A stretch of DNA of 61,065 nt, counting the filler, from Dugesia japonica (lineage: Eukaryota), in assembly GCA_001938525.1 (NCBI GenBank). It is 6 parts of 6 records of this genome, joined end to end, with 100 filler letters (N's around TTAATTAATTAA, not from the genome) between each part and the next. Parts side by side here need not be neighbours in the genome. Positions count along the whole stretch, not along the records: positions 1 to 13,217 come from MQRL01480679.1; 5 more parts are not named here. The stretch is one strand, 5' to 3'. Made by a program: the position numbers and the translations under genes. The notes under the pieces were generated by a model that saw only the letters and a program-made list of their open reading frames with translations, was not told the DNA's origin and did no database searches. Positions 3,202 to 56,478 of this stretch are shown here, in pieces; positions within the stretch are counted from its first letter, which is position 1; the number at the start of each line of letters is the position of its first letter.

Positions 3202-5364
3202 ATACGAATGATTGTGAAAATGCATTAAAAACCAAAACTCTTAAAGTATATGGGCATGAATTAAAAGCACAAATTGGAGCAAAAGTAAAACAAAAAAAGA
3301 ATGGTCCACAGTAAGCGAATATTGAGGTGGAGAAAAGAACAAAGTATGGGACATATGAAATACAATATTTTAGTCAGAAGACAGTATCATGTTGAATTAA
3401 ATAATATAAAAGCGAAATGTATTGCTGCTACAGGGAAAATGATGACACATTGATTTTGTAATTCAAAAGACATAAACTGCGATACTGAAGATGATTAGAT
3501 ATAAAATAAATCCAGTTGAATGTACAGTCAAGAAACTAAGAACAGTGGCAATGAGAGAAATAAGTAGACCTGAACCAACAGAAAAGCTAACTAATTTCCA
3601 AGATAAAAAGCAACATCAACAGTATATATATATTTAAAATTGAACACAAAAAGCGTTTAGACAAGAAGCGTTGAAATGAGTTGAAACTAAGTGTGGTGTG
3701 GCAGTAAGGGTAACTAATTATAATAGTCTATATTTATCATCAACTGAGATTAAAGAAATTAGACCAGAAGTAGATAAATTGGACGTCAAAAAAGCTACTT
3801 ATTTCAATAGTAAAATTATATATAGATATTTATTATTAACTATATCATGAAATATTGGGACAGTTAGATATGATATATTAAGAAACTATCATGAATGACT
3901 GTAACGTTAATCAAGATTTATTGAAAACATAAATGGCGATGGTTATTGCAAACCCTGATTTGGTTGCACCACTCTTATTTGAGGAAAGAGGTACATTTGG
4001 TTAGAATAGTAGAGAAACATTAGTAAGTTTTAAATGTAAACCAATACCAGTTACTCCCACAGATCATGGGATATTTCAGAATGGACCTTGGTTATCAAAA
4101 CTGAGAATTATATAAACAGAACAAAGCACTACATGAAAACACAGATGAATCCAATACCCATTTAATTATATGTAGAAAGATATCGCTCTTATTACATTTC
4201 TTATAAACAAAAAACCAGAATATTCCTTGTGTTTTTAACTTCGCATGTTACCTATTACCTGTTACCATTACCTAGAGTCGGCAATATTTTGTAACTAGAA
4301 TTAAACCTGCCTACAACTAATTAAAGAACTAGTACCTAAAAACACTGGCTTTACAGTGAAAAATGAGCATTCTCATAGTAGGTTAAAGGGTAGTGGTCAT
4401 AGCCAACACACATTCAGTACTCCCCCCGTTTTGCAATTTTAGGTTAATATACTTATAATCAACAAAATATTCTCTATCAAATAAAACCCTTTGTTGGCCT
4501 ATTTTGAGAAGGAAATATTTTTCGAAAAATTCTGTGTAAAATACAAGAAGTCAATTAATTTGGGAGGAGTCATTTGGAAAATAAAAATTATTGAAAAGAA
4601 GAATTAATATGAACTTTATGTATTAAATGTTTTTTATTAATAAATATTTATTATTGTTAATTTGTTTATTTGCATCAATATTTTAAAGTTTTTATAATTT
4701 ATTTTTAAATTTTCGAAATAAAAAAAATTATTATTGAATATGAAATATAATAAAATAATTTAAAAGTAATAATAAACAAAAACTTATATAAAAACACTTT
4801 TAAATATAAAAAAAATTAAACTAAAATTATTCTAAAAAAATAAAAAAAAATTAAAACAAGGAAGCATCTTCAACCAAAATTGGTGGCTGGTTTATCGTTC
4901 TCATTTTTTGCATCACATCGTTTATAAGAAGAATTTTGTGCATGTATCTTTCAGAAGAATTTTCCCATATGCTTCTGAAAGAAAGCAACGTATACTGGCT
5001 ATTTTTGTGTTTATTCCATAATTAGCTTATCGATGTCCATATTCAGAAGGCTTGACATGTTTATCCAATATATATGTTTTCATGGATCTACTAGGCCCTA
5101 GCAGCTAGGGCTTTGAGAAACAGGAGCATCTTTTCTGGAAAAACTAAAACAGTAATAAATAATAATAAAAAAAATAAAACTTACTTTTGTCGTCATAAAA
5201 AACCTTTTCTTCCTTCTTTATTTCATCTTCTATTAAAATGGTTATTTCTACAAATTTTCATCCATAGTTTTTAAAAATAATTCAAAAAAGAATTAATAAT
5301 GATTGCAATATATTAAATTTGAATAATAAAATACCACAACGTAATATTTTATTTTTTGAAAATT

Positions 5365-5903
5365 AAATATCTAAATTTAAATTGATATTTTTGTACTTAT
5401 ATCGTATTTGTTTTGCATCCTCGTTGCAAATTTTTAAAATATTTTCCAGCAAATTAAATAAATCTGAAGTAATGTTATTCATGAAACTTCACATTTTTAA
5501 GTCCAAGTATTACTAGTTTTTCTGCTTAGAATACATTTACGCATAAAGGGTCATAATTAACAAGTCTTAGAGCATGGAATAACTCTGGTTCGAACCAACA
5601 GTTTACTATTCTTGCTAATTCATACAAATTTATTGAAACACCCATATTTACGACAATTGTTAGTGACTGTAATCGTAAATTCTTTATATTGTAGGGGTTC
5701 AAATCATGTAGTTCCAATGATTTCTTACAATCCATTGTTCTGAATTTTCTTGATCTGAAGAATATAGTTGTATATTTGTCACTTTTGACTATAAATTGAC
5801 ATGGTTTGCTAATATTAAAGCTCATTTTCTTTGTTACTTCTTGCGACATTTTACACCTGTAAATAATATTAGTTATCATAATTAATGAATTAATGAGGAA
5901 CAT
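5365..5903 (-). pseudogene. TATA-binding-protein (TBP)-like gene inside the Polinton
   Basis: Repeat 1 ITNIIY..TTIFFRSRKFRTMDCK resembles TBP IQNIVS..TALIFSSGKMVCTGAK. Repeat 2 NLRLQSLT..INLYELA..FEPELFHALRL..PLCVNVF*AEKLVILGLK resembles DFKIQNMV..IRLEGL..YEPELFPGLIY..PRIVLLIFVSGKVVLTGAK. One stop at 5526; C-terminal helix frameshifted. Confidence 0.8.
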
Positions 5904-5965
5904 TGGGATTTAAATTAATTAATTCGATTGATTCGTTAAAAGAAATATTAACAATGTACTAAATT

Positions 5966-6537
5966 ATGAATAAATTAAATAAAAACTAGATGGATAAATT
6001 AATAAATGATGCAATCTATCAAATTATTGGACATAGCCGTAAATTTATAAACATATACTGGCATAGGGACGCAGACAAGGAGCATGAACTGACTAAATCT
6101 AAATTTTGTTAAATTAAAGTGAAAATTATAAACGGTTTAGATAAAAAATAGATCAAAATATTAAGACCGGGTGATGTTATTGTTGCTTAGACGAATAAAG
6201 AAAACAAATTCAATAATTTATTCACAAAAATATCGAGACATCGGAATGCAACTGCAATATTTATTACTCGAATCTATTTCATCAAGGAGGTAGTCATAGA
6301 ACTCGCAATTTAAACCTAAAATATTTGATTCTATTCAAAATTTCTAGAGATCAGACTGTTGTTTATTTTCTAGCTAGACACTCTAGACAATTTCTTATTG
6401 AATCATTTCAAGATGCAACAGAAAAGCTACATGGATATCTATTTCGTGACTTTACTCAGCAATTTTTAGATGATTTTAGGGTGAGAACAGGTATATTAAG
6501 TCCAAATGGTATCACAGTATATAAACAAAATAGGTAA
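5966..6537 (+). pseudogene. Polinton A32/FtsK-like packaging ATPase
   Basis: LFTKISRHRNATAIFIT, RTRNLNLKYLILFK..RD and FQDATEKLHGYLFRDFTQ are Polinton ATPase motifs. The Walker A region is eroded. Confidence 0.85.
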
Positions 6538-6757: not shown

Positions 6758-7145
6758 ATGTCGAATGGAAAATGGATATCATTATAAACTTATTACTGGT
6801 ATGTCTTTGTTATTAAAATAAAAACTGAAATTAGAAAAAAGTATTCAGTTTTTTACCGCTTTGATTAAATCGTCAAAATTTTCTTGAATGAAAATTTTAC
6901 AATCATTTCCACCATATTTTATCTATGATTTAATTGAGATTATTTTAAATATTGTTCGTGGTAATGTAAATTTGAGCGAAGCTAAAAAGGAAGCGTTGAA
7001 AAAACATTGAAAAAACGTTGTTAACAATTGTAAATACACTAAATAGGAAATTTATGAGACGAGTAGTAATGAATAATAAAGGTGGTGGATTTATAGCAGC
7101 GTTACTTCCAATTGTATTAGCAGCATTAGGCTTAACTCATTTCAA
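6758..7145 (+). pseudogene. Small Polinton virion-associated protein with GGGFIAALLPIVLAALG C-terminus
   Basis: Basic region (EIILNIVRGNVNLSEAKKEALKKH) ending in KGGGFIAALLPIVLAALG, typical of the small protein next to the Polinton ATPase. Frameshifted. Confidence 0.6.
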
Positions 7146-7329
7146 ATAGAAAATTGTCGTTTTTGAACAATATTTAAATAAGCAATGGACGGATTACAAT
7201 CATAACCTAATTTTGACCTATATTTCGTATCGAATTGTTGTAATGGGGAAATTAAAAACAACATGCATGGATTCAAAAATACCAGCAGGTTTTTGAGGCG
7301 TATGAAAATTGACAACATCAACTCAAAAA

Positions 7330-7660
7330 ACGAAAAGAAAGACGAAAAAGTAGTTATTGGGTCAGCTAGCGTACAGTCTGAACAAGCCAATGTAGAAAAG
7401 ATTTCCAACAAGAGCATATAAAACTTATGGTATTGATGATTTATGGCAAACGGATTTAATGAAGATGATTCAATATTCAAAATTTAATATTGAAAATATC
7501 AGCTTCACCATTTAACAAGAATTTCAATAGCAATTGGAGTGATGAAGGTTTTCAAATAACAAAAATAAATACTAAACAAAATCCGGTCATGTATGTTATT
7601 AAAGATTATGAAGGTTTCCTAAAACATTATTTTATATCAAAAAAATAATTGAATTTATTG
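7330..7660 (+). pseudogene. Polinton retroviral-like integrase with the catalytic core deleted
   Basis: YSLNKPM*KRFPTRAYKTYGIDDLWQTDLMKMIQYSKFN (start of the rve core) runs almost directly into the C-terminal FNKNFNSNWSDEGFQITKI..PVMYVIKDYEG. Confidence 0.85.
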
Positions 7661-7837: not shown

Positions 7838-8765
7838 ATGGTGAAAAATGAGGAACGCTATTCCAGATTAGAAGTCTAGTAAATTCATTGTCAATCTTCA
7901 AAATCCCATTTAAATGGATGGTAGTTGGGAAGAAGCTATGATGGACTTCACCTTTCTATATTCTCCCTTTTCAGTATATAGTAAATCAAAGATTGAACAC
8001 ATGACCGCAAAAGATATATTGAATGAAACAACTGTAAAAATTAATATCAAGGAAAAAACTATTATTGTTGATCAAAATAAAAATATTGAAATATTTGAAA
8101 AGAATTTCATAAGGTTTTATTGTGATTTTCCATATGCTGTCATATATAAAGATGCAAATATCGCACATTCATTTGGATTATGATTTAAATCTAACAAATT
8201 AACAAAAACGTTCTGTCATATCTATACAAACTTTGCAAATGATGACACAGTATAAAAAGTAAAAATTAAAGTAGCTAATACAGTAGTAACTTATCATACT
8301 TTTCAGTTTAAAGAATTGGAACAATTAAGTACATATTTGACAGAAAATTGTATTCAAATATTTAAAAAATGTCTTATAAATGCGGATAAATATGTTGAAT
8401 TTGAGCTAAAGGATGACGTCAAAAAAGTTGTATTTTTTGTTTTGACAAGAACATTGGGATTAGACAAACAACAATATTCTCCTACAGATATAAAAGGAGG
8501 CGAGTTCAAAGCTATTACCAAATCGAAAATAATGAAGTTACATCAGAAAATGTTCATCTTGTTGAGCCTATAATTGTAGGTGATGTTAGTGTAACTTTGA
8601 TGAAATATATATTGATAGAAAAGCATACAACTGATGGAATTGTGCAAATAGTAGTAGAGAATCTAATTTATTTACCTATGGCGACATCATGTAAAACATG
8701 ATACAAGATCAAGTTTCCAAAACCTTCAATAACTCATTAAATTTTACATTTTAAAAAACTAAGTA
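7838..8765 (+). pseudogene. Polinton minor capsid protein (penton/PX)
   Basis: N-terminal FIVNLQNPI*MDGSWEEAMMDFTF and C-terminal VEPIIVGDVSVTLMK..LIYLP..LILHFKK motifs. ORFs 7914-8183 and 8316-8573 are fragments of it. Confidence 0.8.
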
Positions 8766-9178
8766 ATGAATTCTGATATTCCTTCAATGTATAGTACTAG
8801 TCAAGCAGGTGGAGAATCACCTTACTTTTTTGGAAACAGTATGAATCTGGTTGGTTGCCAAAAATAGGTAGATTTGCTTTTCCTTTTCTTAAACGTATCG
8901 GTTCATTTGGTATGAAAACCGTTCAGGATGTACTATCTAATAATGGAAAAATACTGTCAACATTAAAATCTAATGCATTACTTAGTGGAGTAACTACTAT
9001 GATTCCAAAAGTATCAAACATATTACCGCAAAGTATAATTAATAAAACACCCTTAGAAATAACTAATATGCTATCAAATCAAGTTAAAACACAACAAACT
9101 CGTAGAAAACGAAATACATCACTCGCATCACGTATAAACAAACGAATGAGAGGACATGTAACAATATTTGCAAATTGA
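8766..9178 (+). pseudogene. Small basic Polinton protein upstream of the major capsid (PW/cupiennin-like)
   Basis: QAGGESPYFFG..SGWLPKIGRFAFPFLKRIG amphipathic motif with an Arg/Lys-rich tail (TRRKR, NKRMRG). Collinear with copy 2. Confidence 0.7.
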
Positions 9179-9805
9179 TTTGCGGTAAAACTGAATTATG
9201 TATTTTTGATAGACCATCGCCACAAGCTGTAATTGAAAGTGACAGTTTGAAGATGTCTTTCCCATAAATTCGATTTTTAAATAACAAAGCGATTTAAATT
9301 TTTTATAAATAGATCTAAAATAGAATACTTGGATTTGAATGATACTTTATTGTATATTAAAGTGAAGGTGGTTGATAAAACTGGTAAAGATATGGCTGAC
9401 ACTCGTGTTGCAGTTCCAAGTAACTATATTCTAAATACGATTTTTAAGGATGTAATTCTTTCGTTTAATAATTTCAAAATTCAAGGTGGAAATGAATCTT
9501 ATCTTCACAAAACATGAATTTAAACTATAATAAATTATAAAGCTGATATTAAAGATGTCTGCCTTGCAGTAATTTTATATGGAACAGAAGCAGATAGAAA
9601 AAGGTCTATTAAAATATCAAAACAATTGTTTCTTTGCATTTCATTGCAACTCGATTTCATGGATCAACCAAAATATATTATTTCCGGTGTTAATTGCTTT
9701 ACAGTTGCAATTAATGTTGGACATAACCATTGATCATTTTACATAATTCATTTAAAATAAAAGTTTCAATCAAACGTTTTTGTATTTATACTGATATTTG
9801 ATAAC

Positions 9806-9840
9806 AATTCGATATTTCGACCTTGTCTTCGTCAGGAATT
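9806..9840 (-). ncRNA. Minimal type-I hammerhead ribozyme (PLE type)
   Basis: Minus strand reads AAUUC-CUGACGA-A-GAC-AAG-GUC-GAAA-UA-UC-GAAUU: intact core, stem I AAUUC/GAAUU, 3-bp stem II, palindromic AUAU stem III, AUC cleavage triplet. Confidence 0.75.
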
Positions 9841-9867
9841 GACTTTTTTCTCAATTCAAAAAAAGTC

Positions 9868-9902
9868 AATTCCTGACAAAGACAAGGTTGAAATATCGAA
9901 TT
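9868..9902 (+). ncRNA. Degenerate inverted copy of the hammerhead motif
   Basis: AATTCCTGACAAAGACAAGGTTGAAATATCGAATT has two substitutions (G8>A and a stem II C>T) relative to the minus-strand copy. Confidence 0.55.
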
Positions 9903-10483
9903 AATATCAAATATCAATAAAAAAACAAATAATTTTGATCGATGCTTTTATTTTAAATGAATTCCGGTGTTAATGTTCATATTTGGTTGAAGAGATCAAT
10001 TACTTAATTTTATTCTAGTTACATTTCAATGTGTAGAACAAAATAATGGTTCTTATAAAATCTCGAGTTCAATATTTCAAAATCTAGACATTGTTAACAT
10101 TTCCTTGACGAAAAACACTTATTTTCGAGAAATATTTACTCAAGACATTATAAAAGGTAATTACACCACAACATATGTCCAATTTATAGTAAGAAATATG
10201 GGATATTTGGATAAGAATATGAATTGTAAAATAACACTTAGTGATTTTAAGGACAATTATCCCTTCTTGTTCTTGCTCCAGAGTATGATATAAATAGAGT
10301 CAATTGCCTCAATAAGGAAGTTTTAGAATGGATATAAATTAACCAAAGCTTTAACAATATCAGCATGTTATAACTTATGGAGTATTTGAAAATGAAATTC
10401 AGATGAAGCTAACGGAACCGTATTAGTGTAAACACTATGCTGTATAATCGGTATATGTTATGAAGTAGGTGTTATTATATTAA

Positions 10484-10843
10484 TGATTTTTATTTTAATA
10501 GTACTATTCAGATTGATCGGATTTCGTCAAAGTGACTTGGATTGTCATGATTAGGTGTTTATGCTTTAGATAAACTTCTAAATTATATTCCAGTAAATAA
10601 AGCCTTAATTATTAATACCCATACATCAAATCTAGATGGAGCACATTGGATAGCTGTTTACAATAAACCCGCTCAAATACTGATATTTGATTCATTAGCA
10701 TTACATTTTCCGTTAATGTTAGTGTCACGCTTATTAAAATTATCAAAACCGATAGTTCACAATTAAATTCATTATCAAATTCCATTTACAACTACATGTT
10801 GTCAGTACTGTTCATTCTGGTTTAAAAAACAACATTTTACTTG
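10484..10843 (+). pseudogene. Polinton adenain-like cysteine protease
   Basis: GVYALDKL..LIINTHTSNLDGAHWIAV..IFDS..YQ..TTTCCQYC contains the His/Asp/Gln/Cys catalytic motifs. Confidence 0.85.
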
Positions 10844-12268: not shown

Positions 12269-13217
12269 ATGGACAGATGGACAGTGTGTTTTATGAATCT
12301 CCATTAAATAAGAGAATTAAGTTGGAAGAAATAATGTTAAATAATGTTAAAGATTAACCTATTGAAATAATTTTTATGGAAGATTATATTAAAGAAATCA
12401 TCGCGTTTGGACCGGAAGAAGGTGATACATCCAATATTGTACAAGAAGAAGTAGAAAACAATCAATATTGAACCAGATAAAATAGCGAATTTTGAACAAG
12501 AAGATTGTAACAATTTTGAAATAATTGATGAACTGGATGGAAAAGATATCGTGTTATGAGGGTTCATCGATGCAGAAAAGGCGGAAATTAATCAAGTTGG
12601 TGGATCAACAAATACTACTAGGGATGATGGTGTAATTATAGAATCGGATTTGTATCGCTGCCATAGGATACTTAAAATAAATGTTTCAAGATGAAATTCT
12701 TGTGAAATAATGTTACCAAAACCAATAGTCACCAAATTATTTCAAACAATAGAAGAAATGAAGCAGGTTAAAATTCAATTTGGGATACATGTAAAGTTAA
12801 AAAGGATATCAACAATCGATGATGGAGAAGAAGTAGAGTTTAAAACCTGTAGAATATCATATAGAGCCGTTTTATAAAATAATAACTTTTTTGAAGGTGG
12901 GATCAACCAATTAGATGAGAAAATAACAATAAGTAGCTCCAGTTGAATGTTAATTCGAATACTAGAAATGAATTTTAAGATCACAAAGGTTGCAGATATT
13001 TGTCGACTTTTGGGAAAAGTTATATTCCAATACCAACAATTTAAGAAGGTAATTAAAAACAGTTATGATTTAATAAAAGATTTTATGTTGAATTTAAAAT
13101 TATATGTTCTTTTCACGCGGCATTGCCTATGCTTTCTAAAATTAATGAATATAGCTTGAATTTTGATATTGGTTCTAGTTATACTGATTATCTACGGACT
13201 CTGATATTGCATGTCCA
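12269..13217 (+). pseudogene. N-terminal region of Polinton protein-primed DNA polymerase B
   Basis: Acidic N-terminus, QVGG, then SSS*MLIRILEMNFKITK..GKSYIPIP resembling the conserved GSGW..I..L...Y.PL.GSSYIPLP block before pPolB domains. Cut by the scaffold gap. Confidence 0.6.
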
Positions 13218-27723: not shown

Positions 27724-27959
27724 ATGTGGAGTTTAACAGGTTTATTAGATTACATAAACCCATAAATACCCTACATAACTTAAAATTACTATATAAATAC
27801 CTAATAATGAATTAATCAGAAATATTTGAATTTTGATTGAATTAACTTAATTTATCTGTTAAAACAAATTATGTAGTTAAAGAGTTTTAAGGGTTTATTA
27901 GAGACCAATGTGTTTAATATGCGTTTTTATCATGTTTTATATGGTTTTTTAAAGTTTAT

Positions 27960-28135
27960 TAGTATTTAGGGATTATGAGCGTATAGGGTTTATGAGTCTA
28001 TTGGCTTTAAGAGTGTATGGGTTTTAGTAGTGTATATAATTTAGGATATTGGGTTTATGAATGTATAATGTTTATGAGTTTATTGGTTTAGGTGTGTATA
28101 GGGTTTATGAATGTATGGGATTTATAAGGTTTTTA
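27960..28135. repeat. ~18-bp degenerate tandem repeat (AGGGTTTATGAGTGTAT-like)
   Basis: The same unit occurs at ~53135-53210 and as reverse complement at ~55230-55550, each near Polinton-derived sequence. Confidence 0.7.
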
Positions 28136-28479: not shown

Positions 28480-28830
28480 CTAAATTTTCAACTGCAATTA
28501 TGATTTTTTTTAACATAAGACACAGTGTTGTCCACAAGTTGTTTTTAATAGATCTCGATTTCAAATTATGGTTTTGATAAATGTTATACCAATTTTGATG
28601 TATAATATTAAAAAGCAAATGAATCAAATACCACTATTTGAGCAGATCTATTGTAAACAGCTATCCAATGTTCTCCACCTAGATTTGATGTATGAGTATT
28701 GACGATTTAGTATTGATTTACCAGAATATAATTTGGAAGCTTGAGTAATGCATAGACACCTAGCCATGGTGATCTCAGCAATATTGATTCAATTTGATCT
28801 ACCTGAACGGAACTAATAAAATAAAAATTT
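28480..28830 (-). pseudogene. Adenain-like protease, copy 2
   Basis: VNTHTSNLGGEHWIAV..VFDS..TTCGQHC. Confidence 0.8.
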
Positions 28831-28882
28831 CTAATAAAATAACTCTTACTTTATGGCATGTAACGATTATACAACATATTGT

Positions 28883-30100
28883 TTCCACTAATACTGTTCC
28901 GTTGGCTTTAATCTGAATTTCGTTTTCTAATACTCTAGAAATTATAACATTTCGATGATGTTAAAGCTTTGGCAAATTTGATATCCATTCTCAAGTTTCC
29001 TTGCTGAGTTAATTGACTCTGATTTATATTAAAATCAGGAGCGAGAACACATGTAAAGAAGGGATAATTGTCGTTAAAATCACCAAGTGTTATTACATAA
29101 TTCATATTCTTTTTCAAATATCCCATATTTTTAACTATAGATTTTATTTATGTTGTAGGTATTATTATCGTTTGTAAACTCTTGAGGACATACTTCTCAA
29201 TAATCAGTGTTTTTCGTTAAGAAAACAGAACCATCATCTGAATTTTGAAATGCTGAACTATAGCTTTTATAACTACCATTATATTGTTCTCCTTTTTGAA
29301 ATGTAACTAGAATAAAGTTGAGTAATCGACGATCGCCAAATATTTGTTTCTTAAAGAACGATGAACTATCTTTACTAATTGCAAATACAACGAATTTTTT
29401 GGTTCTTATTGGATAAATAGCATTTTGCTTTTTTAGTCCCAACTGATGAGCAGCTAGTACTGAATGTTCAACTCGTATACGTTTAACCATTAATTTGTAT
29501 CTAGTAATACATATCTAGGTACATTAGCTGCAGATTCCAAACAAATCTTAGAAGATGCTCTTTTCAATCGAATATGAACATTGACACATGGAATAAGGTA
29601 TTTCGGTTGATCCATGAAATTGAGTTGCAATGAACTGCATATAAACAATTGTTTTGATATTTTAAAAGACTTTTATCTATCTGCTTCTGTTCCATATTCC
29701 ATTGCTGCAAGACAGATATTTTACTATCAACATTATAATTTATTATAGTTTCAATTATTGCTTTGTGAAGATAAGATCCATCCCCACCTTCAATTTGAAA
29801 TTGTTAAACCAAAAAATTACATCCATAAAAAGTGTATGCAAGATATAGTTTGTAGGTACCGTATCATAAGTTTCAGCCATATCTTTACCTGTATTATCAA
29901 CTACATTCACTTTAATATACAATAAAGTATCATTCACATCTAAATATTTTGTTTGAGATCCAATTATAAAAAACCCTACGTCGCTTGGTTATTCAGAAAT
30001 TGAGTTCATAGGAAAGACTTCTTCAAATGTACCACTTTCAATTACAGCTTGCGGAGATTGTCGATCAAAAGTGCATAACTCAGTTTTACCGCAAATTATT
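28883..30100 (-). pseudogene. Major capsid protein, copy 2
   Basis: ICGKTELCTFDRQSPQAVIES, YLDVNDTLLYIK, VKRIRVEHSVLAAH..AIYPI and QGNLRMDIKFAKAL. Confidence 0.85.
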
Positions 30101-30937
30101 TTTCAAATATTGCTCCATGACTTCTCATTTGTTTGTTTATACACGATGCGACTTATTTTTTACATTTTCTATGAGTTTGTTGTGTTTTGACTTGGTTTAG
30201 TAGCATATTAGTTATTTCAGACTGTATTTTATTTCTTATACTTTGCGGTAGTATGTTTGCTACTTTTGGAATCATACTGGTTACTTCACTAGATAACGAT
30301 GACATAACCTTTCCAAGTTCAGCTAATGCATTAGATTTTAATGTTTGTAGTATTTTTCGATCATAAGCTAGTACATTCTGAGCTGCTTTTAAACCCAATG
30401 AACCAATACGTTTAAGAATAGGTTGTTAGATGAGTTTGAAATACTTATCGGGTCATTAATATCAAACCTCGATTCCATAGCAAAATGTATTCACAAACAA
30501 AACTATAAATATAAATTGGCAAATTTAAAAATTCATATTCAAAAACGGAAAATATCAAATATCAGTATTTTGTAAAATATTTTAAAATTTTTATTAATAT
30601 CAAATTTAAAATTTTATATACATTTCACATAAATATTTTAATACACATTAAAATTTTATATTCTAAATTTCTCATTCACTAGTTGTACAAAATTAAATTT
30701 TAAAAATTTATTTTATAATTTATTTTACTAATACAAATCAAAATACAAATCTGATATTAATCAATTCAGCTTTAAAATACAAACAATTTAAATCTGTTTT
30801 AAAAAACTATCTTATATAGGTAAAACAAATCTACCTATTGTTCGTAACCAACCTGATCAATATTGTTTACCAAGAAAGTAAGGTAATTCTCCACCTGCTT
30901 GACTAGTACTATACAATGATACGATATCAGGATTCAT
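30098..30937 (-). pseudogene. PW-like small basic protein, copy 2, split by a solo-LTR-like insertion
   Basis: Homologous to 8766-9178. ORF 30153-30398 is its C-terminal part. Confidence 0.7.
30424..30816 (+). mobile_element. Solo-LTR-like insertion with 5-bp TSD (TAGGT)
   Basis: Begins TGTTAGATGAG. TAGGT at 30419-30423 and 30817-30821. The homologous site in copy 1 has no insert. Confidence 0.6.
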
Positions 30938-30939
30938 TA

Positions 30940-32400
30940 TTATGTTTTCTAAAATTTAACGCTAAATGCGTTTTTGAGTCTTCAGCAAAATTGCTTAGTT
31001 TTCCCCTATCATCTCGTATATTGATTTCTATATTGTTTATATATGACCAAGAAATAAGTTGGATGCTCAACAATTATTTGAACTACTTCATCATTTTCAT
31101 TTTCTTCTATCAATACTGATTTCAATAAAGGAATATTAACATCACGAACAACAATCGGTTCAACAATACTACAATAGATGAAAATCTTTTATAATTTCTT
31201 AAAAAAGGGATGTTTTTAAAAACAGATTTTATTTTTTGTATTTTGAAACGGAATTTGATGAAATCAGTTTGTTAACTATTTAAATAAGAAAATAAGATTA
31301 AATATATATAATGTATTTTTAAAATGTATATTTTAAAATATAAATAATGTATTTTTAAAAATATGTATAATGTATCAGTTTGTTTAAATATTTAAATAAG
31401 AAAATAAGATAAAATATATATAATGTATTTTTGAATTTGAAATTTAATAAATTATGGATAAATTAAAATAAGATAAAATATATAAAATTTAATAAATTTG
31501 ATATTAGATAAATTTTAAAATGTTTTGCAAATACTGATATTTGATTTTTTCCGTTTTGATATGAAATTTTTAAAATTTGTTTGAAAAAACAAATTTGTAT
31601 GTATAGTTTTTTTAATAGATCTTGTAATGAAATCGAGTTCTGATGTTATAATCTGATGAGTTCTCAAAACTCATCTAACAATCTCGTATATTGATTTCTA
31701 TATTGTTTATATATGGCGAAGAAATAAGTTGGATGCTCAACAATTATTTGAAGTACTTCATCATTTTTATTTTCTTCTATCCATACTGATTTCTATAAAA
31801 GAATATTAAAATCACCAACAACAATCTGTTCAACCATATTACAATAGATGAAAATTTCATTATAACACTTTAATATAGTAAGTTTCTTATTAATTTTATA
31901 TTGTAGTTGTATATATTCGAGTATAATCTGATTCTTTTAATCCTAAGGATTTTGTTCAGATTTTATCGAATTTAAAACTTTAGTTCAACTTGACAATGTA
32001 AATTAAAATAATTCATCTTGATTTAATTTAAAAGTTTTAAATAGTTACATGATTTAAATCCATTATATACAATTCGGGTTCAAATTGAAATTAATGTTTA
32101 GTTACAATCGCATAATAATATTTAATTTTTATTTGTTCAATGGAATCATCATTTTTAAAAATATGAAAGCGAATTGAAAATATTTTATCGTCAAAATTTA
32201 TAATATTATCCGCTCTCACAACTTCCCCTTTAGAATGTGTAAATCTTACCAAGTTTTCCATAATATCAAATGATAAACTGTGGAATTTAATATCACTACT
32301 AAATATTATCATATTTTTCTTTAATGTTATATCTGTTTCCGTATTATTTTTATATTTACCTTGAGAATTAACAGTTAAAGCACTGTTTTTTTGTTATTAA
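30940..32400 (-). pseudogene. Minor capsid protein, copy 2, with insertion and partial duplication
   Basis: IFIYC..VEPIVVxDVNIPLLK..VVEHPTY motif is present twice. Confidence 0.7.
31200..31680 (-). mobile_element. Second copy of the same solo-LTR-like repeat, opposite orientation
   Basis: Ends AAACTCATCTAACA, the reverse complement of the 30424 start. The other end resembles 30780-30815. Confidence 0.55.
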
Positions 32401-36532: not shown

Positions 36533-36544
36533 TATTGCTAGAAT

Positions 36545-36970
36545 AATTGTTGGACGTTACCAGTGATCGATTTTCAGAATTCATTAAAATTAAAGCTTCG
36601 ATCAAAATTTGTTTTTTTGGTTCTTGATAATAATTCTATATTTCGACTTTGTCTTCTTCATAAATTGACTTTTTGATTCATTCAATATTTATTTTTATAA
36701 TAGAAATTTTCTTTGAATTAATTTATTTTTACTAAAATCTAATTGATTAATTTTAATTTTTTTTAAATTTAATTATTTAATTATTATAAATTACATTGAT
36801 TTTAGGATTAACATCTGAAACAAAGAAAAGTGAACACTTCAAATACTTTCAACAACGTCACCTAACATGGAAAACACTAGGAACAGGCTACATTTCCACA
36901 CTTCACAGAAAATAACATGTGAATTACTAATTAAAGAAGACAATCCTAAAATCAATGTAATTTATAATAA
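36545..36970. mobile_element. Penelope-like remnant: inverted pLTR with degenerate hammerhead (36632-36666, minus) and GIY-YIG C-terminal-like fragment (plus)
   Basis: pLTR matches the 9700-9850 and 54340-54410 sequences. KKSEHF..HRKITCELLIKEDNPKIN resembles the PLE endonuclease end (RKI.E.LLIK...P.LN). Confidence 0.55.
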
Positions 36971-42602: not shown

Positions 42603-43050
42603 GCTGCTTCTATTGGTTGATCAATCACATGTCCTTTCTTGGCAATAACTTGAGTCCCATGTTTGATGGTAATTTTCCCGGTGGCAAATCCTTCATCGCA
42701 TTGTTGTCCGGTTAGATGTACAGAATGTCTCACTGTTTCTGGGTCAATGATTGAAGTATAACTGTGATATCCACAATGAAATATGATGTTTTTACCGTTA
42801 CTGTACATTCGCGTACTTGGGCCTTATAGTAATCAGACTCTTGATATAAATGGTAGACGGAATTATTACGGAATGAGATTTTCTCCGGGTTTGCGTCTGG
42901 ACATTCTTCTGTATCCACTAACGAGAATACTTCCTTCCCAACTTGCATTCCATCGCATTCGTATGCTAGTATGGCTTCACTTCTGCCCATCATTAAGAAT
43001 AACAAGAGTATTGTAGTGGTTAACGCTTGCCAGGAGTTTCGACGAGGTCC
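42603..43050 (-). pseudogene. env: Envelope glycoprotein N-terminus, chuvirus (Jingchuvirales)-glycoprotein-like, with internal signal peptide
   Basis: RRNSWQALTTTILLLFLMMGRSEA / ILAYECDG..FSLVDTEECP..HLYQESDY..RECTVTV(K)NIIFHCGYHSYTSII..QQCDEGFATGKI after repairing one frameshift in an A-run at ~42790. Confidence 0.75.
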
Positions 43051-43129
43051 ACGTGTCCATCCATTCTCGATCTCATTTAACTGATCCCGAACAATCCTGA
43101 TTACTCTAGTAGCATTTTCATGAGAGGGC

Positions 43130-43530
43130 TGAGGTTTAGGGCATATTGCCTCAATAAACTTTTCCCATCCCCCATGCTGTTTTATNNNNNNNNNNNNNNN
43201 NNNNNNNNNNNNNNNNNNNNNNNNNNNNNNNNNNNTTTGACGGCTTGCTTCTAGCGATTGTTAGGTGTGTTTGATTAATCAGATGCGCTATGGATACTAC
43301 TATCCTTCCCTTCGTTGGCTGCTCTTGTAATAATTCATCCATTACCCCTTTTAAATTATTTCTTGTACCATGACTGGTGCCTTTAGTGGCGGGAAATTTC
43401 CTAATGGCTGCCTCTATTTCCTTTGCCAATGGCCTAAGACTATCAGATAGCTGAAACTTTCCAATCCATATTTTTAACTCTGGGTATAACATTAATAATA
43501 ATTGCCGTATTACTACTTCGGTTGGCATGT
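43130..43530 (-). CDS. Bcl-2-like domain within ORF2 polyprotein
   Basis: BH3-like LRPLAKEIE, BH1-like VMDELLQEQPTKGRIVVSIAHL, and BH2-like IKQHGGWEKFIE (43150-43185, read in the glycoprotein frame just after the N gap). Confidence 0.7.
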
Positions 43531-44344
43531 CATCATCTGTTGAATTTTCGTGGTATCTTTCTTGTGATACCGTTGCTAGTCGCTTAGTTTGATGGTTTAT
43601 TGATGTGGTTAATCGTTTTTGTTTTAAGGCCTCTGGGTTTTCCGGGGGCTTGGTTCTTGACCGACCTCTATTACGAGGTTCCGTAATTGTTTCCGCATCT
43701 ACTCGGGTGCGTACTGGCTTTGGCAGTATTTCCTCGTCTTCTATTTCTATCGGATTTTCCATCTCTAGTGAGTGGTTTGTATCCATCAAATCATCTATTA
43801 CCGAAGATGGCAATTCTTTTGCTATTCTGCTTAATATTGGTGACAATGGTTGGTCTTCCAATATGTCTTCCTCGTCCAAGTCGACCTTGCTAGGGTCGTA
43901 TTTTTTACTGCGTGCTGGTTCTTTCACCTTGATTTCTTCACTTTTTCTAGTTGGAGGAGAATATTTTGTAATTTGTAAGTCGTCTTTGTCTTCTGCTGAC
44001 TCGTCTGCTGATGGTGATCCAAATATTTCACGTTCCCAATCTTGGCTTGTTTTAGGAGTTTCTTTGGTTTCCCGGGACGCTTCAGTGCTTCCAGATTGAT
44101 CTGTTGTAGGTCTTAATATTTGACTAGCCGCTAGTTGTGTACGGTGTTTATATGCTTTTAACATACCGGATGTCTCTCCCATTATTGGTCTGGTTTTATC
44201 TGCTGCTTTATAGGGATCTNNNNNNNNNNNNNNNNNNNNNNNNNNNNNNNNNNNNNNNNNNNNNNNNNNNNNNNNNNNNNNNNNNNNNNNNNNNNNNNNN
44301 NNNNNNNNNNNNNNNNNNNNNNNNNNNNNNNNNNNNNNNNNNAG

Positions 44345-47300
44345 TTTGTATGGTGGTTTAAATGGCAACTTGTCTCGTAGTTGTTTTACCGTATTATACA
44401 CCGGCATTTTAACCGTGATTTTGTCCCCTTCTGGATCGATTATTCTGAATTTAACTTCCAATGGCGTGGGTTGTCCCATCTCCGCTTTTCTCCATTTAAC
44501 TAGAATTTTACTAAACTGAACTGGATCCCATACATGTGCTACTTTGATAGCTAGTATTAATCGTCGCAATTTTCTAAGATCTTCTACTGCCAAATCTTGT
44601 TGTAAGGCTATATTGTATCGTCGCATGATTTCCGGCTTTATTAACTTATCGCCTACTAGTAATTCGAACAATTTCGGTAAATTGTCTTCTGGTTTTTCAT
44701 CTTTGACCGGGGTGTTGGTCAGAGCTGCTCCCATCTATACTCTTTGATTATTTTGCTCTCGTTTAGAGAGTTTAGCTCTAGCGAATATTAATGGATGTAT
44801 TTCTTCCAGGTAATATTCCACTAACTCCCTAGCTTCCTGCTTCCATTTTTCCTCCGAGACCCGTGGTCGTCGTCTCTTCTCATCCCTTGATGTTAAATAA
44901 ATTTTTAATTTAGTACCTGGCCAAACCCCCATATATTTTACTGGCAATCTCATTTGGTCTGATTCTATTACGTGGCTGTAATAGAGTACTATGTCGTCTT
45001 CCTGAACTGATGTTTGCAATCCAGTTTCCTCCTCGTTAAGGCTACGTTNTTGATTCATAAATTTTACAATCCTCTTCCGCAACTTAGCCCATGGTTCGTT
45101 CATTTGGACCTGCCAACGAATTTCAGTTTCGTCGGGAAATCTGATTGTTACCGTGACGGCTTCGTTGGTTATCATTCAAACTGTGTTATTTAATATTGCA
45201 TCCATTATGTCTTCCGGCATTTAACTTATGGCTCGTAATTGATTTAGCTCTAGAACTAATTCAATGACTTTGTCATGTCTTAATAGTTCCAAGTTTTCTT
45301 CCAAGGTTAAAAGTATTTTCATTATTACTCGCGCCAGACTTCCCCATGTTTTACTGTCTTCCCATAACTCAATATTTATCTGCATTGTTCTGTCATTGAC
45401 TACTTCGAATAACTGTCCACTGTTAATTTCTTGTTCGTATAGTTCCTCTAGTTGTTGTATTACTTCCTCCATAGATTTTACCGGGCCTGGAATGTAATCC
45501 TCTGGTTTCTGTATTTGGAGAAATGTATTTTCTCCGGGTCTTAATCCTACATCCATTAAATGTTGTTTTCCTTCAAACTTTATGGGGAATCTCAGATGAT
45601 CGCTTGTGATTATATAGCTTTTCTGCTGGTCGGCTATATCCAGTGTTTCTATAATTTCTTGTAATTCCCCCGCTGATGTACTGTTAAAATGTGGTATGTG
45701 CATGACAGTCAATTCCGGTTCCTTTCTGGTTTTTTTTGTTTGGTGTCAGATATTTTATCGTGACTTGAAAATCTTCTCCCCTGGCACTTGTTTTCACTGC
45801 ACCAATATACGACTTGATTACTGATTCCTACTTGGCACAATCTTCTCTTGCTATTTCAGTATACTTTGTTAGATACATTAGTAAATTTAATGCTTTCCAA
45901 AATGCTACTCGAGGTATCCTTTCCTTGAAATAACAAAAATCCGAAATTATCTTCGATATCCGCTCTGCCTGCGGCGAACTGAAAGGGCCAGCGAATTCAT
46001 GTTTAAATGGTTACAATCGGGGTTGACCAATATCCTCCGAGATTTCTTCCTCCTGCTCTTCTTCATCTGAGGTTAGGTCTGGTGTGTCATGGTCTTTACT
46101 CCGAACCATGTTTATTTGGGCTTTATTTTCGCCATAAGTGTTTATGAGTCGTTCATTCTCTACCGGTAGTATTTCTTGTAGATATAAGCTCATCATGTTA
46201 AATATGAGTTGATCGGTATCCGGCATTTTCGATATTGGGATGTCTACGGTCATTTTACGCGATGTTAGTTTGATTTCTGTGATCTCCCTTGGCTTGATAT
46301 CATGCAAAAAGATATGGTCCTCTTTCTCGGCTAATATAATCATTGTTGCTCCTGCTTGCATTTTATAGGACTTGAGCGATTTTGGTCATAGCCATTTCTT
46401 GATTGGTTTTATGATATGGTTGATCGTTAGTCCTTCCAGCGTTATCATATCTACCTTTTTTATGCTTCCCTCCTTACTAAGTAGGCTGACTCTGATAGAA
46501 TAGTCGGATATAGTGGATGTATTCTGTACTTCCTCTTCGTANNNNNNNNNNNNNNNNNNNNNNNNNNNNNNNNNNNNNNNNNNNNNNNNNNNNNNATTGC
46601 CAAATCCCGTAAGTTATTCATCATTTTCCAATATACTTTGATATTCACGACTGGTCGCGTTTCTCGTGTTACTCTTAGTAGATCATTGATAGCGTGAAAC
46701 GTGGCGGATTCCTCCGTTATCGGTTTGGTATAATTCATCCGAATATCGCGTATTGTTGGCGTGCCTTCTGGGAATATGACGGATTTTGTAGTAATTATTG
46801 GCAAGTTATCGATATTCTGTATTTTCTGATTCTCTTTTACTTGTTCCTTTATGCCAGTTAATACCTCGGATACGTATAATTCTGTTATCTCTTCCATTCG
46901 CTCCTCGAGATCCGGTGATTGATTCGTCCGTGGCTCCTCGTCTACATCTAACTCACATATTTCTCCGGGCTTTGCGTGGCATTGAAATATGTGTTTGTCC
47001 TCGTCGTTGATCTCAACCAATTTGCCATTTATGAACAGAGGTACCATGTTTAGCCCTAGTTCTCGCCACTTATCGGTAATGGCATCAATTAAATCCATCA
47101 TGGTTATTCCTTGTGGTTTTAACCGACTATATTTAGTCAGTTCCTGTTCATTTTTACCTATATTTAAATATAATTTATAATCCTGAATTTTGGTAGTTGC
47201 CAATATCTCTTCGGCATATTTCTGCCTAATCATGAGCCATTGGTTCTCGATTTCCTCCGGTATTTCTAGTCCATCATATATGTCGTAGATTCTATTCATT

Positions 47301-48047
47301 ATCATCCAATAGGTTTCTCGGGGTAAGTTCTCCTTCTCCATCTGTACTCGGTTAACCATTTCCTCCACTTTACGCATTGCTACTACCTCTCTTGATGGCA
47401 TCTGTTGCATTCTTATCATGTTGCATTTGCCCTCTCTTCTCTCCAATCGCTGCCTGAGGAAGTCGTTAGGCGTCATTAACAACTGTTTCCTCTCTTTCTT
47501 TGTCAGTTTATCTTTCTTCGCGAGTACCGTGGAAAGTATCTTGATTTTAATTGGTAATACTCCTGGTTTATATAGATATTCCATTTCTCCCATGATTTCT
47601 AAAGCTGATCTTCCGGTTTTTGTTATCCAGATGTCATAGTCAATACCGGGGTGTTTGTCCAATACTACGATTTCAATGTCCTCTCCTAGTTTTACTCCAA
47701 AATCGTATAGATGTTTCTTTCGGGCGTTAAAATCTATCATAGCACTTGGAGTGCACACATATGTATCAGTTATGCATGGATAACCTGCTTGATTAAGCGC
47801 CGCCTCTAGATCTTCTACCATTAATCCCGTGAGGGTCAATTTCATGTTACCTTCTGGGCTATATAACCATACTTAGTAATCTGATGATTCCATGTTAGAT
47901 ATTACCCATTCATAATGCACTGGTAACCATTCTGTCCAATCGGGCGTATTCTGGTATTTCCCTTCAGTTTCTATTTCTTCTTGATTCATTTCTAAATGTG
48001 AAACATTGATTAACTTCCCCGTGGTTTTTATCTATATACATATTCAT
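44345..48047 (-). pseudogene. ORF2 polyprotein N-terminal part: six ~230-aa repeats each beginning with a ubiquitin-like (beta-grasp) domain
   Basis: Recurring end motifs KHLYDFGVKLGEDIEIV, KHIFQCHAKPGEICELD, DHIFLHDIKPREITEIK, QHLMDVGLRPGENTFLQ and LPVKYMGVWPGTKLKIY, each followed by an E..ELY..E helix. ORFs 45221-45712, 44735-45175 and 43151-44734 share one frame. Confidence 0.7.
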
Positions 48048-48094
48048 TAAGTAAGTTTACCATTTACACTACTTACAGGTAATTTCTCTTTATT

Positions 48095-49700: not shown

Positions 49701-50069
49701 ATCAGGGATGCTTTGACTATTATTTCTTCTGTAATCTCATTCTTGCTTCCTTGTGGTAACTCGTTTTTTGATTTTCTTAGTTTTGATCGATCCACCACAT
49801 CTTGTATCAATGTCATTTTCATTTTTTTCGCCCTTCCAGGCGTTATTCTGACTGATTGTCTCTCTTCTTTTTCCATTCCATCCCCTTGACCGTGAAATGA
49901 TTGTCTCATCAATTTCACTTGTTTTTCCAACCCTTCATTAGGATTCGCGATACTGATTGGTTTCAATTTCCTACAAGCCAATTTGTCTGATCGTATGTCT
50001 AGTAAGGTCATATTTTTTGTTTGTGTTTACTTTGAATAGGTGGTTCGACGATTGGATATCTAACTGTTC

Positions 50070-51390: not shown

Positions 51391-51479
51391 TCGCTGGCTT
51401 AATTGACCTAATATGAATACTGGGGTGGATATTTTCCCGAGTATCATTATAGCTTGTTGTGATCGTAATTGGTAACTAT

Positions 51480-52895: not shown

Positions 52896-52929
52896 CTTTC
52901 CTCACATGTAGTATTTGTATTTTAAAATA

Positions 52930-53115
52930 ATCAGAAAAGTGCGTAACTTTTTTTAAAAATTATACATGTGTGGAACTTTTTTAAAAAATAATTAATTAAG
53001 CATTGAATTTTTTATAAAAATATTCATTACCGTTGAACTTTTTTAAAAATAAGTCATTAAGCGTTGAGCTTTTCTTTTAAAAAAATTATAAGCTAGGAAC
53101 TTTTATTTTTAAAAT
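52930..53115. repeat. ~35-bp degenerate tandem repeat, reverse-complement relative at ~57200-57480 and a looser one at ~11770-11920
   Basis: Units of the type GTGGAACTTTTTTAAAAAATAATTAATTAAGC versus AAAAAGTTCCACACTTTTATGATTTTT. Confidence 0.6.
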
Positions 53116-54013
53116 CATACAGTGTGCATATATATAGGATTTATAAGTATATTTAGGAGTTTCGAGTATATGGAGTTTGTGAGTATATATATATTGGGTT
53201 TTTGACTGTATACCTGCGATAATAATTAAAATGACTAATAACCATTCATTTCTTTTAAAACAGGTAACATCTAATAGAAACTAACAAATAACAAGTATGT
53301 ATTTGTTGTAGCGAGTCTATTAGAAGTAGGATTCATAAATTAAATCACTTTTACATTCCAACAATGCAATAAAATATTCTAAATATAGACAATGTTGCAA
53401 CAATTACTTTGGAACTAGAAAATATTCCGGATTTTCACCATAGCAAAATGGATTTTTCAAAGACCCAAATTATTTTTTACTTTAAAGTAATTTTTCATTT
53501 CTTTTTAATAAATTAATATTTTCTTTTAGATACTAGTTATGATAACTCGATGCAAACATAGCTTGTTGATATTAGGAATTAATGAAAAAGATAGGAGCAT
53601 ATTGGAAGCTCTATTTTTAAGACTGAGCAAAGATATCAATTTCGCCGAATCAGTTTACAACAATTCCAAAGAACGAGATGAAAATCATTTTGGTGATATA
53701 ACAAAATGGATGATACAGGTGGAGATAAAAGGTTATAAAAAATCCATTTATACAACAGGTATCATCTGGAAAACCAAAAGCATAGAGAAGAAGATTTAAT
53801 TTGATTGTTGATAAACTTTATGTTTTTTTGATTTTCATTATATATATTTTCGTGTGCATTATTTTTTCTTATTTGTAATACAAATACAAATTTTTTAAAA
53901 TAATTTAAAAACAAATACAATTAAAACTCAATTTATAATTAAATTCTAATAAAAGTAAAAAAACATAATACAAATAATACATTAATGAAAAACAAAAATA
54001 TTTTAAATGTTAG

Positions 54014-54075
54014 TTTGAACCAGAGTTATTTCCTGCTTTAAAGTAAAATATGATCCTTTATATAAATATTTTAAA
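54014..54075 (+). pseudogene. TBP-like gene fragment (copy 2)
   Basis: TTTGAACCAGAGTTATTTCCTGCTTTA encodes FEPELFPAL, then KYDPL. Confidence 0.6.
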
Positions 54076-54496: not shown

Positions 54497-55229
54497 ATAT
54501 ATACATATTATTAATAAAAACTTGTTATTATTTATAATTATTTATTAAGTTTTTTATGAACATATCATAAACATGTCATGAACATGACGCGAGCATGCGT
54601 TTACATCATTATCCATATTACACAGCCACGATGTTAATAAAACATGGTAGCTATGTAAATAATAAACTTTTAAAACTTTATAAAATGTATACTAAAATAA
54701 TGAAATATGATGAAGAATATATTTATTAAAAAATAAAAAATAATAATTACATCAATTTCGTTTAAACAAATAAAACAACACAATGGATATGAATAGAGTT
54801 ACAGCAAAAAATTTAATTCTATTTTGCCATTTCAATTTTTATTTAATTTTGTTCATGAATATTGATTGGACAATAAGTTCAACATAGCTATGGAGACTAA
54901 TTAAGCCATTTTTGAGCTTGCATAAGAATTGAATTTCGTCAATAGATCCATTGTTAATTGTATCTGTTAATTTTTTAATTTCTATTTCTACTTGATTCAT
55001 ATAAATAATGCTTTTGAATTAAAAGTGATTTATTTTACAAAAACTAGTGCTTATATATTCTCTGCAATATATAGATACTTGTTATTTGCTAATTTTTATT
55101 AGATATTACCAATTTTAAAGGAAATGAATAGTTATTATTCATTTTAATTTATATGATTGGATGTATTTCGTTTTAAATGATATGATTTGTTATGTAGATT
55201 ACATAAATAGAACAATTTTTAAAATAAAT

Positions 55230-55550
55230 TCCTATACACTCATAAACCCTAAATATATACTCAAAATCAGTATACACTCACAAACCATACACTAATAAAC
55301 CCTATATTCTCAAATATGCTATATATATATATATATATACAAAACTCTATACACTCACAATTCTATACACTCATAGTCCTTATATACTCAAAAATTCCTA
55401 TATTTATATACTCAAAAATTCTATATATACACTCACAATCACTATATATACTTATAAATCCTATATACATACATATACAAGACGCCATACACTCATAAAC
55501 TCTATCTACTCAAAAGTCTTAAATATATATACTCAAAATTCTATATATAC
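55230..55550. repeat. ~18-20-bp degenerate tandem repeat (TATACACTCATAAACCC-like)
   Basis: Directly visible; reverse complement of the 27960-28135 unit. Confidence 0.75.
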
Positions 55551-55936: not shown

Positions 55937-55974
55937 CCATATGCGAGACATAAATAAAAATATACAACTTTTAG

Positions 55975-56300
55975 TTTGAACCAGAGTTATCTCCTGTCTT
56001 ACGACATGATAAATATGGTCTTTTATACATAAATATGTTCACATCATTAAAACTTAGACTATATACTTAGACTTTATCATTTTAATTTGAAAGGATATGT
56101 GGATAACATTACTTCGAATTTATTCAATTTAATTGAAAAAAATTTAGAAAATTTGCTAAACAGATGCAATACAAATACATCTCAAGTACAAATAATATCA
56201 ATTTAAATTTTGATATTTAATTTTCAAATAATTAAATATATTACGTTGTGGTTTGTTAATATGCACATATGATATATTGCATTTCATTATTCATATTTTT
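55975..56300 (+). pseudogene. TBP-like gene 3' half and downstream region (copy 3)
   Basis: FEPELSPVLRHDKYGLLYINMFTS plus ~300 bp colinear with the reverse complement of 5290-5595 (shared ATAACATTACTTC, AATATCAATTTAAATTT and TATTACGTTGTGGT). Confidence 0.75.
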
Positions 56301-56478
56301 TAAAGAAATTTAATAAGCGTTTTTGGCTTTTATCCAAATGTTTACAAATACAGATTATGTTAATGCAGAAATAATCAGTTAATATATAGTCAATATTTAT
56401 GTATGTACATATATCATTTGGGATATTTAGAAATGTAAATTAAATTATATTTTTTTAATTAATTAATATAAAATTATA

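Follow-up and report, generated by a model that had tools for sequence, protein, structure and literature searches.

A small TBP-family gene co-inherited with one Polinton lineage, and a candidate altered TATA box ahead of its packaging and capsid genes

A small protein from the TATA-binding protein (TBP) family, here called the mini-TBP, behaves as a maintained and regularly co-inherited gene of one Polinton lineage. The copy in the window (the whole 61,065-nucleotide stretch of Dugesia japonica DNA that was analysed, made up of six eukaryotic scaffolds, all AT-rich, with N-linkers between them) is a real gene but a dead one, a pseudogene in a decayed Polinton. The importance of the finding lies in the family, and the window copy is a fossil only. 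Motif counts and conserved residues in intact relatives suggest that an intact mini-TBP probably binds an octamer, YATAAACR, that precedes the packaging and capsid genes, and there recruits host TFIIB and RNA polymerase II.

The mini-TBP pseudogene and the Polinton remnants of the window

The first-pass annotation described an intronless, compact, two-repeat TBP-like ORF at 5365..5903. The TBP homology stands, but the intact ORF does not, as the reading frame is interrupted by a stop and a frameshift (Table 1). In a tblastn comparison with the intact relative P0003, the pseudogene matches at 68% over residues 1-133 and, in another frame, at 59% over residues 134-150, and 2 of 13 near-invariant family residues are altered in it. 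The search with the Pfam TBP profile that the annotation had recommended (PF00352; stop read as X) matched the window copy with E=3.9e-5 and 23.9 bits, above the gathering cut-off of 22.9, and an HMM of the family matched it with E=1.7e-43. The gene is therefore regarded as real but broken. This copy cannot perform any step of the promoter mechanism proposed below.

As the annotation had noted, the pseudogene lies head-to-head with the Polinton ATPase, the two being about 110 bp apart. All four Polinton hallmarks (protein-primed PolB, rve integrase, A32 ATPase and adenain protease) are present as remnants between 5990 and 13018, together with conserved ORFs that have no Pfam match and whose size and place fit the double jelly-roll major and single jelly-roll minor capsids of Polintons; the putative major capsid ORF presumably resembles Maverick capsids. 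Seven of the eight neighbours of the mini-TBP carry stops and the eighth is broken across two frames, and the element, which occupies 5-13 kb, is truncated by the scaffold end at 13217.

Table 1. Features located in the window, in order of position.
Feature	Position	Strand	Remarks
Mini-TBP pseudogene, two TBP repeats	5438..5879	-	homology covers residues 1-150 in intact relatives
Frame change ahead of last helix, mini-TBP pseudogene	about 5481..5488	-	from tblastn with P0003
In-frame stop in repeat 2, mini-TBP pseudogene	5526..5528	-	
One-mismatch YATAAACR-like site	5946..5953	+	44 nt upstream of ATPase start; weak alone in AT-rich DNA
A32-like packaging ATPase remnant	5990..6528	+	3 stops, frameshift; cluster matches Pfam Pox_A32
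Exact YATAAACR	6520..6527	+	end of ATPase gene, upstream of next conserved gene
Small basic conserved gene (cluster C3), remnant	6768..7131	+	
rve integrase remnant	7231..7615	+	internal deletion; cluster matches Pfam rve
Putative minor capsid (penton) remnant	7863..8761	+	from position and size; no Pfam match
Putative pX/PW-like gene remnant	8766..9025	+	name from position
Exact YATAAACR	9133..9140	+	about 42 nt upstream of capsid gene
Putative major capsid protein remnant	9181..10405	+	split by palindromic insertion 9709-9964; from position and size, no Pfam match
Adenain-like protease remnant	10551..10832	+	cluster matches Pfam Peptidase_C5
Protein-primed PolB, N-terminal remnant	12725..13018	+	E 3e-6; cluster matches Pfam DNA_pol_B_2; cut by scaffold end
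Second Polinton remnant (scaffold 3): penton end, pX, capsid, protease	28572..31876	-	
Exact YATAAACR, two sites	30134-30141 and 31034-31041		in scaffold-3 Polinton remnant
SSB-like gene remnant (cluster C2)	53542..53772	+	frequent mini-TBP flank
Mini-TBP fragment with FEPELFPAL	53996..54072	+	
Tandem repeats	55224..55394	.	common to region downstream of scaffold-3 Polinton (27955-28125)
C-terminal mini-TBP fragment and downstream flank	55957..56301	+	stop and frameshift

Two more mini-TBP fragments, both C-terminal, are found on scaffold 6, and the annotation's account of them is largely borne out: one is colinear with the pseudogene region over the roughly 300 bp that it had claimed (55966-56301 against 5285-5603, 75% over 337 bp), and the other retains FEPELFPAL, read at 54014. 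The fragments were also said to lie amid Polinton-associated repeats, which holds for the repeats of the scaffold-3 element (70% over 180 nt) but not for the element at 5-13 kb, with which none match. No Polinton core gene was found on scaffold 6, where the SSB-like gene is the only neighbour seen. That gene belongs to cluster C2, the commonest mini-TBP neighbour in the window's subclade, and a C2 relative has the predicted fold of a T7 gp2.5/Enc34-like ssDNA-binding protein (Z 8.0-8.4; e.g., L004:1788-2135 and relatives).

Several other features of these scaffolds deserve mention. Inverted arms at 52907-53126 and 57216-57439 (80% over 226 bp; they contain 31-bp repeats) bracket both scaffold-6 TBP fragments and the SSB-like remnant, and the segment between them is possibly a small deleted non-autonomous derivative. 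C2 appears to be spliced to an upstream ORF, C12, in several loci. The insertion in the capsid remnant (9709-9964) is a palindromic, MITE-like sequence of ~250 bp with partial copies at 36533-36685 and 54330-54496 on two other scaffolds. The scaffold at 42603-52726 is GC-richer and carries a Ty3/gypsy-like integrase with roughly ten additional same-strand ORFs, several of which were scanned and gave no Pfam match; one ORF there matches the viral fusion glycoprotein family PF24664 (E 1.6e-8), and the scaffold is possibly a large env-bearing retroelement.

The mini-TBP family and its linkage to Polintons

Intact relatives are about 150 aa long and fall into 153 clusters at 50% identity in a full HMMER scan; a word-based search retrieved 5 close relatives (84-151 aa) and a profile search 131 proteins. 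PF00352 is present in all the relatives listed. The predicted model of P0003, made from an alignment of 87 sequences (pLDDT 97.4), has the two-repeat saddle fold and matches TBP both in Foldseek (E 4e-9, TMq 0.77) and in VIA-align (Z 13.7, rmsd 2.6, 148 residues; next unrelated fold 7.2). The TBP match on which the annotation's reading hinged is returned at the family level by Pfam, Foldseek and VIA-align alike. Every cluster retrieved from the atlas was a TBP cluster, at a recognition score under the benchmark of that search.

A phylogeny and dN/dS estimates, both of which the annotation had called for, support a distinct and maintained family. In a rapidly built 71-row tree, the 60 family rows lie on one side of a branch with an SH-aLRT of 98, forming one clade apart from 11 other TBP-like rows, a thin outgroup that includes only one canonical eukaryotic TBP. 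The window copy is grouped with P0003 and P0004 (support 99). Archaeal TBPs score slightly better against the mini-TBP family, which we do not count as a sign of origin. The family is under purifying selection, with a median pairwise dN/dS of 0.16 (range 0.05-0.42) over 39 pairs selected for 70-99.5% identity and a dS of 0.05-1.5, and the ATPase has a dN/dS of 0.10 over 7 pairs. A second divergent TBP-like family (P0154 and P0259-P0267; 159-180 aa) is placed outside the mini-TBP clade and has no glutamate at the first stirrup position.

Linkage was assessed in the best 80 of 163 confirmed metagenome matches. A Polinton core gene lies beside the mini-TBP at 43 of these 80 loci and at 21 of the 23 that span at least 4 kb, the misses being mostly short contigs. 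Each of those 21 loci has at least one Pfam-named class (ATPase, integrase, PolB or protease), and the capsid, penton and pX names in relatives' loci come from position, size and recall. The single locus retrieved by ATPase alignment alone also held a mini-TBP. Across the 26 loci that hold the two genes, distances between TBPs correlate with those between ATPases (Spearman 0.68; 0 of 2000 permutations), and 7 of 8 supported splits in the TBP tree are found in the ATPase tree, but only 6 of 12 ATPase splits in the TBP tree. IMG/VR yielded no relatives when queried with TBP, capsid, ATPase and PolB, and only the integrase alignment led to loci there, four in number; no relatives were found in the phage collection, and no close Polinton relative that lacks the TBP was found in IMG/VR. 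The annotation had regarded the gene as a repeated cargo gene and not the host TBP, and had proposed testing its linkage. Linkage holds in relatives, and the gene is indeed not the host TBP, but it behaves as a regular, co-inherited gene of its lineage and not as occasional cargo.

One run of contigs contained 5527 matching records; this figure is no copy number but does suggest a family of many copies. Genes for ubiquitin-conjugating, RING, LRR and KilA-N proteins were seen in or beside TBP-bearing elements (L022:225-719, L053:1710-2168, L059:13315-13893, L040:1918-3327 and L079:606-1739). A tRNA-like sequence, recognised by eye, lies between the TBP and ATPase genes of L060 (about 3450-3530), just upstream of a YATAAACR. 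The L085 contig, a Polinton bearing genes for TBP, ATPase and integrase, sits inside a bacterial MAG, for which mis-binning is the most likely explanation.

YATAAACR and its possible reader

The octamer YATAAACR was picked by eye from the same sequences in which it was later counted, and the loci are related, so that the counts given here are not independent. Counts cover the 120 nt upstream of each gene, with proteins at least 90% identical removed and classes with fewer than 3 members omitted. Across seven gene classes the octamer stands ahead of 74 of 89 genes (ATPase 19/21, capsid 9/9, pX 6/6, penton 10/14, C3 16/18, integrase 11/15, protease 3/6), and its antisense count in those classes is 0, with at most 0.6 expected per class. 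C4 (8/11), PLA2X (6/9) and an LRR gene (5/5) have it as well. It is uncommon ahead of the SSB-like C2 (3/19), C10 (2/8), C13 (2/4), PolB (1/3), C19 (1/6), and KilA-N, C22 and C16 (1/5 each), and absent ahead of the TBP gene itself (0/57), a zinc-finger gene (0/10), C12 (0/4) and C18 (0/3). A canonical TATA precedes 22 of 58 TBP genes, and the other 36 of 58 lack a strict one. As a control, four IMG/VR Polinton contigs with no TBP match, which are partial, come from a distant Polinton group and include two that are nearly identical, lacked YATAAACR at all 18 gene starts, and each of the four ATPases there follows a canonical TATA.

Intergenic copies of the octamer lie mostly 32-50 nt before the start codon. 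Where genes abut, it is embedded in the upstream coding sequence in different frames, and Ile-Asn is written ATA AAC in 36 of 60 cases within the last 45 codons versus 22 of 208 elsewhere (codon use predicts about 10%). The octamer appears to be selected at the DNA level within coding sequence. In the window, the exact sites at 6520, 9133, 30134 and 31034 occupy places predicted from the relatives and account for 4 of 12 estimated gene starts; there is no enrichment of YATAAACR across the window as a whole (26 versus 21.7 expected).

Raw RNA reads of at least 80% likeness cover TBP and ATPase (16, 535 and 67 in three runs) as well as pX and capsid (484, 370, 476 and 35). Most are less than 95% alike, and they fall on both strands. 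They derive from other copies, could reflect read-through or DNA, and do not discriminate between the readings considered here; no read starts near YATAAACR were evident in those runs.

For the residues of the mini-TBP, we take the yeast numbering, the contact roles and the base-contact assignments as working assumptions, with the register anchored by structural alignment. Three intercalating phenylalanines (F41, F101 and F117) are kept in 87/87 family sequences, and the fourth, at the first position of the canonical set, is replaced (P26 in 79/87). On the DNA face, R47 is conserved in 86/87 and M49 and N115 in 87/87. In yeast numbering, the replacements among the 87 sequences are V71 to N (58), V122 to R (86), T124 to M (87), N159 to S/T (86) and L205 to N (87), and the N-lobe holds 4 of the 6 DNA-face changes. 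The accessible part of PMC12209930 describes the role of the four phenylalanines and shows DNA binding by a divergent TBP in unexpected ways. The TFIIB-contact glutamates are retained (E97 in 79/87, E99 in 86/87); glutamates of the C-lobe contact TFIIB according to the portion of PMC7221094 available to us.

Repeat 1 is short of helix, as the annotation had suspected: the N4-F41 stretch has 37 residues in P0003 versus 47 in the canonical TBP P0135, the G50-Q71 stretch has 21 versus 33, and the predicted P0003 model has only short helices in the repeat-1 segments. The H2 linker, with 21 residues in P0003 versus 33 in canonical TBP, ranges from 14 to 51 across the family. P0003 lacks the full basic helix H2, the surface of which serves as a dock for TFIIA, TAF1, Mot1/BTAF1 and Brf (PMC7221094, available portion), and the window's subclade has lost most of this helix. 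Because other subclades retain near-full helices, the rewired N-lobe DNA face is, judged from the aligned sequences, a family-wide trait and the helix trimming a subclade trait.

It is possible to assemble these features into a two-step cascade. The mini-TBP gene, which lacks the altered box and has a canonical TATA in 22/58 cases, would be an early gene transcribed via host TBP, and its SSB-like neighbour would be among the early genes read in the same way. The rewired N-terminal lobe would then read the altered 3' end of the box, with its C at position 7; in TBP-DNA structures it is the N-terminal lobe that covers the 3' half of the box. The C-lobe stirrup would dock host TFIIB, and loss of the basic H2 surface would free the mini-TBP from Mot1/BTAF1, TAF1 and TFIIA, after which the mini-TBP would drive the packaging and capsid genes. 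With somewhat less conviction than for the binding of the octamer, we lean towards a broader proposal, that a widespread Polinton lineage carries a one-protein orthogonal promoter system in which a 150-residue TBP would provide a small DNA virus with an early-to-late switch of separate evolutionary origin from that of the herpesviruses. Its re-specified DNA face would read YATAAAC boxes, even within coding sequence, and plug into host TFIIB. Running counter to the altered-box reading, the integrase, which is non-structural, carries YATAAACR, and the protease does so in only 3/6 cases.

An alternative, which we consider rather unlikely, is that YATAAACR serves host TBP itself as a weak variant of TATA and that the mini-TBP acts as a decoy, repressor or competitor, either titrating TFIIB or blocking promoters of the host or of early genes. 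Host TBP may read YATAAACR too, because wild-type TBP was crystallised on a C(-25) variant of the box (PDB title 1qn3). Both TFIIB-contact glutamates are retained, as a TFIIB sink would require, and the missing intercalating phenylalanine could weaken DNA bending. A decoy, however, would have no need of the new and conserved DNA face (R47, M49 and N115), and it leaves unexplained both the C kept at position 7 within coding sequence and the absence of the motif where the mini-TBP gene is absent. The annotation had offered either a virus-encoded basal transcription factor or a dominant-negative TBP mimic; the class-specific box and the TFIIB glutamates argue for the factor, and the dominant-negative role is less favoured.

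We consider it improbable that YATAAACR is instead a polyadenylation, termination or genome-binding signal, and that in replication or packaging the mini-TBP binds this octamer or some other DNA. The octamer does resemble AATAAA, and many copies are close to the upstream gene's 3' end, but just 4% of 122 sites begin with A, and many sites fall 40-100 nt within the upstream coding sequence. Moreover, the intergenic copies cluster 32-50 nt ahead of the next start codon, and the octamer precedes C2 in L015 and L027 even though the upstream gene there is on the opposite strand.

Very improbable, in our view, is a system in which the mini-TBP and its motif serve another RNA polymerase, either host Pol III via Brf or that of a large DNA virus acting as helper. 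TAAA-type late promoters do occur in large DNA viruses, but there is no sign of a helper virus in these data, and long, AT-rich protein-coding genes would be poorly suited to Pol III. The C-lobe surface binds Brf1/Brf2 as well, but the H2 surface that Brf1 also uses is cut in the window's subclade (both from the available portion of PMC7221094). Finally, a stray host TBP paralogue or processed pseudogene that came to lie in a Polinton by chance would account for a broken window copy and for two fragments on a scaffold with no core gene, but it is scarcely credible given that the window copy nests among intact family proteins with a support of 99, that identity to cellular TBPs is only about 20% in the structural alignment, that all the neighbouring viral genes are equally broken, and that Polinton linkage, the agreement of the ATPase and TBP trees and the family tree all contradict it.

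If the mini-TBP does read the altered box, an intact family protein would prefer YATAAACR over TATAAAAG, and the family would offer a natural TBP with changed specificity that has shed host regulatory surfaces and kept its TFIIB site. How Polintons time their capsid genes with no RNA polymerase of their own found no explanation in the literature searched. With a matched factor and box, a single small protein and a site of 8 bp would be enough to put this timing to the test.

Comparison with known systems

The elements that carry the mini-TBP share with the Maverick/Polinton (Polintoviricetes) core set an ATPase, an integrase, pPolB, a protease and putative capsids, and differ in gene order from the vertebrate Polintons surveyed in the accessible part of PMC8097293. 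Term searches for TBP and TATA gave no occurrence in the main text of PMC8097293, PMC11131425, 10.64898/2026.06.19.733378 and 10.64898/2026.10.13.758929, and TATAAAC together with Polinton gave none among the matches listed. The one mention of a Polinton TBP in the literature searched, which had subscription papers, Repbase reports and figures outside its scope, is a gene labelled 'TBP' in MELD viruses with an adintovirus-like PolB (Fig. 5 legend, Starrett et al. 2021, PMC8502044). In the accessible text of that paper the gene appears as a label only, with no family, structure, promoter or function, and one supplement and passages of bioRxiv 10.1101/697771 add no more; the mini-TBP can be compared with it by label alone.

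The mini-TBP is a TBP-family protein and not a canonical TBP. With cellular TBP/TRF (PF00352; PDB 1cdw, 1ytb and 2z8u) it shares the two-lobe saddle (Z about 13, 148 residues), three intercalating phenylalanines and an EPE stirrup for TFIIB. It differs in being virus-borne, intronless and about 150 aa long with no N-terminal tail, in having a proline at the first phenylalanine position and polar residues on the DNA face, and, in the window's subclade, in having helices H1 and H2 cut short.

Structural matches to TBP-like proteins of large dsDNA viruses were found in BFVD, and the mini-TBP resembles the TBPs of Nucleocytoviricota and other large dsDNA viruses in having lost the N-lobe signature for host regulators. 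In those viruses, however, the TFIIB-contact positions have diverged and co-evolve with a viral TFIIB (PMC7221094, available portion), whereas in the mini-TBP they are conserved. No TFIIB or RNA polymerase gene was found among the 55 ORFs scanned of 432.

A parallel in operation may lie with the beta- and gammaherpesviruses, in which the TBP mimics KSHV ORF24, EBV BcRF1 and HCMV UL87 pair with a TATT late box (PMC6541308, accessible part). Both arrangements would combine a viral TBP-like protein, an altered TATA box on late genes and host Pol II, the last of which we infer for the Polintons. The herpesvirus mimics are large, bind Pol II directly and act within a six-protein complex, as described in the same portion of that source, and no comparable partner complex was seen for the mini-TBP, a bare core of 150 aa that keeps the TFIIB site. 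The boxes differ as well, the Polinton YATAAACR being changed at position 7 (and 1) and the herpesvirus TATT at position 4. By analogy, the mini-TBP system would work like the herpesvirus TBP-mimic/TATT system, of which it is not a member.
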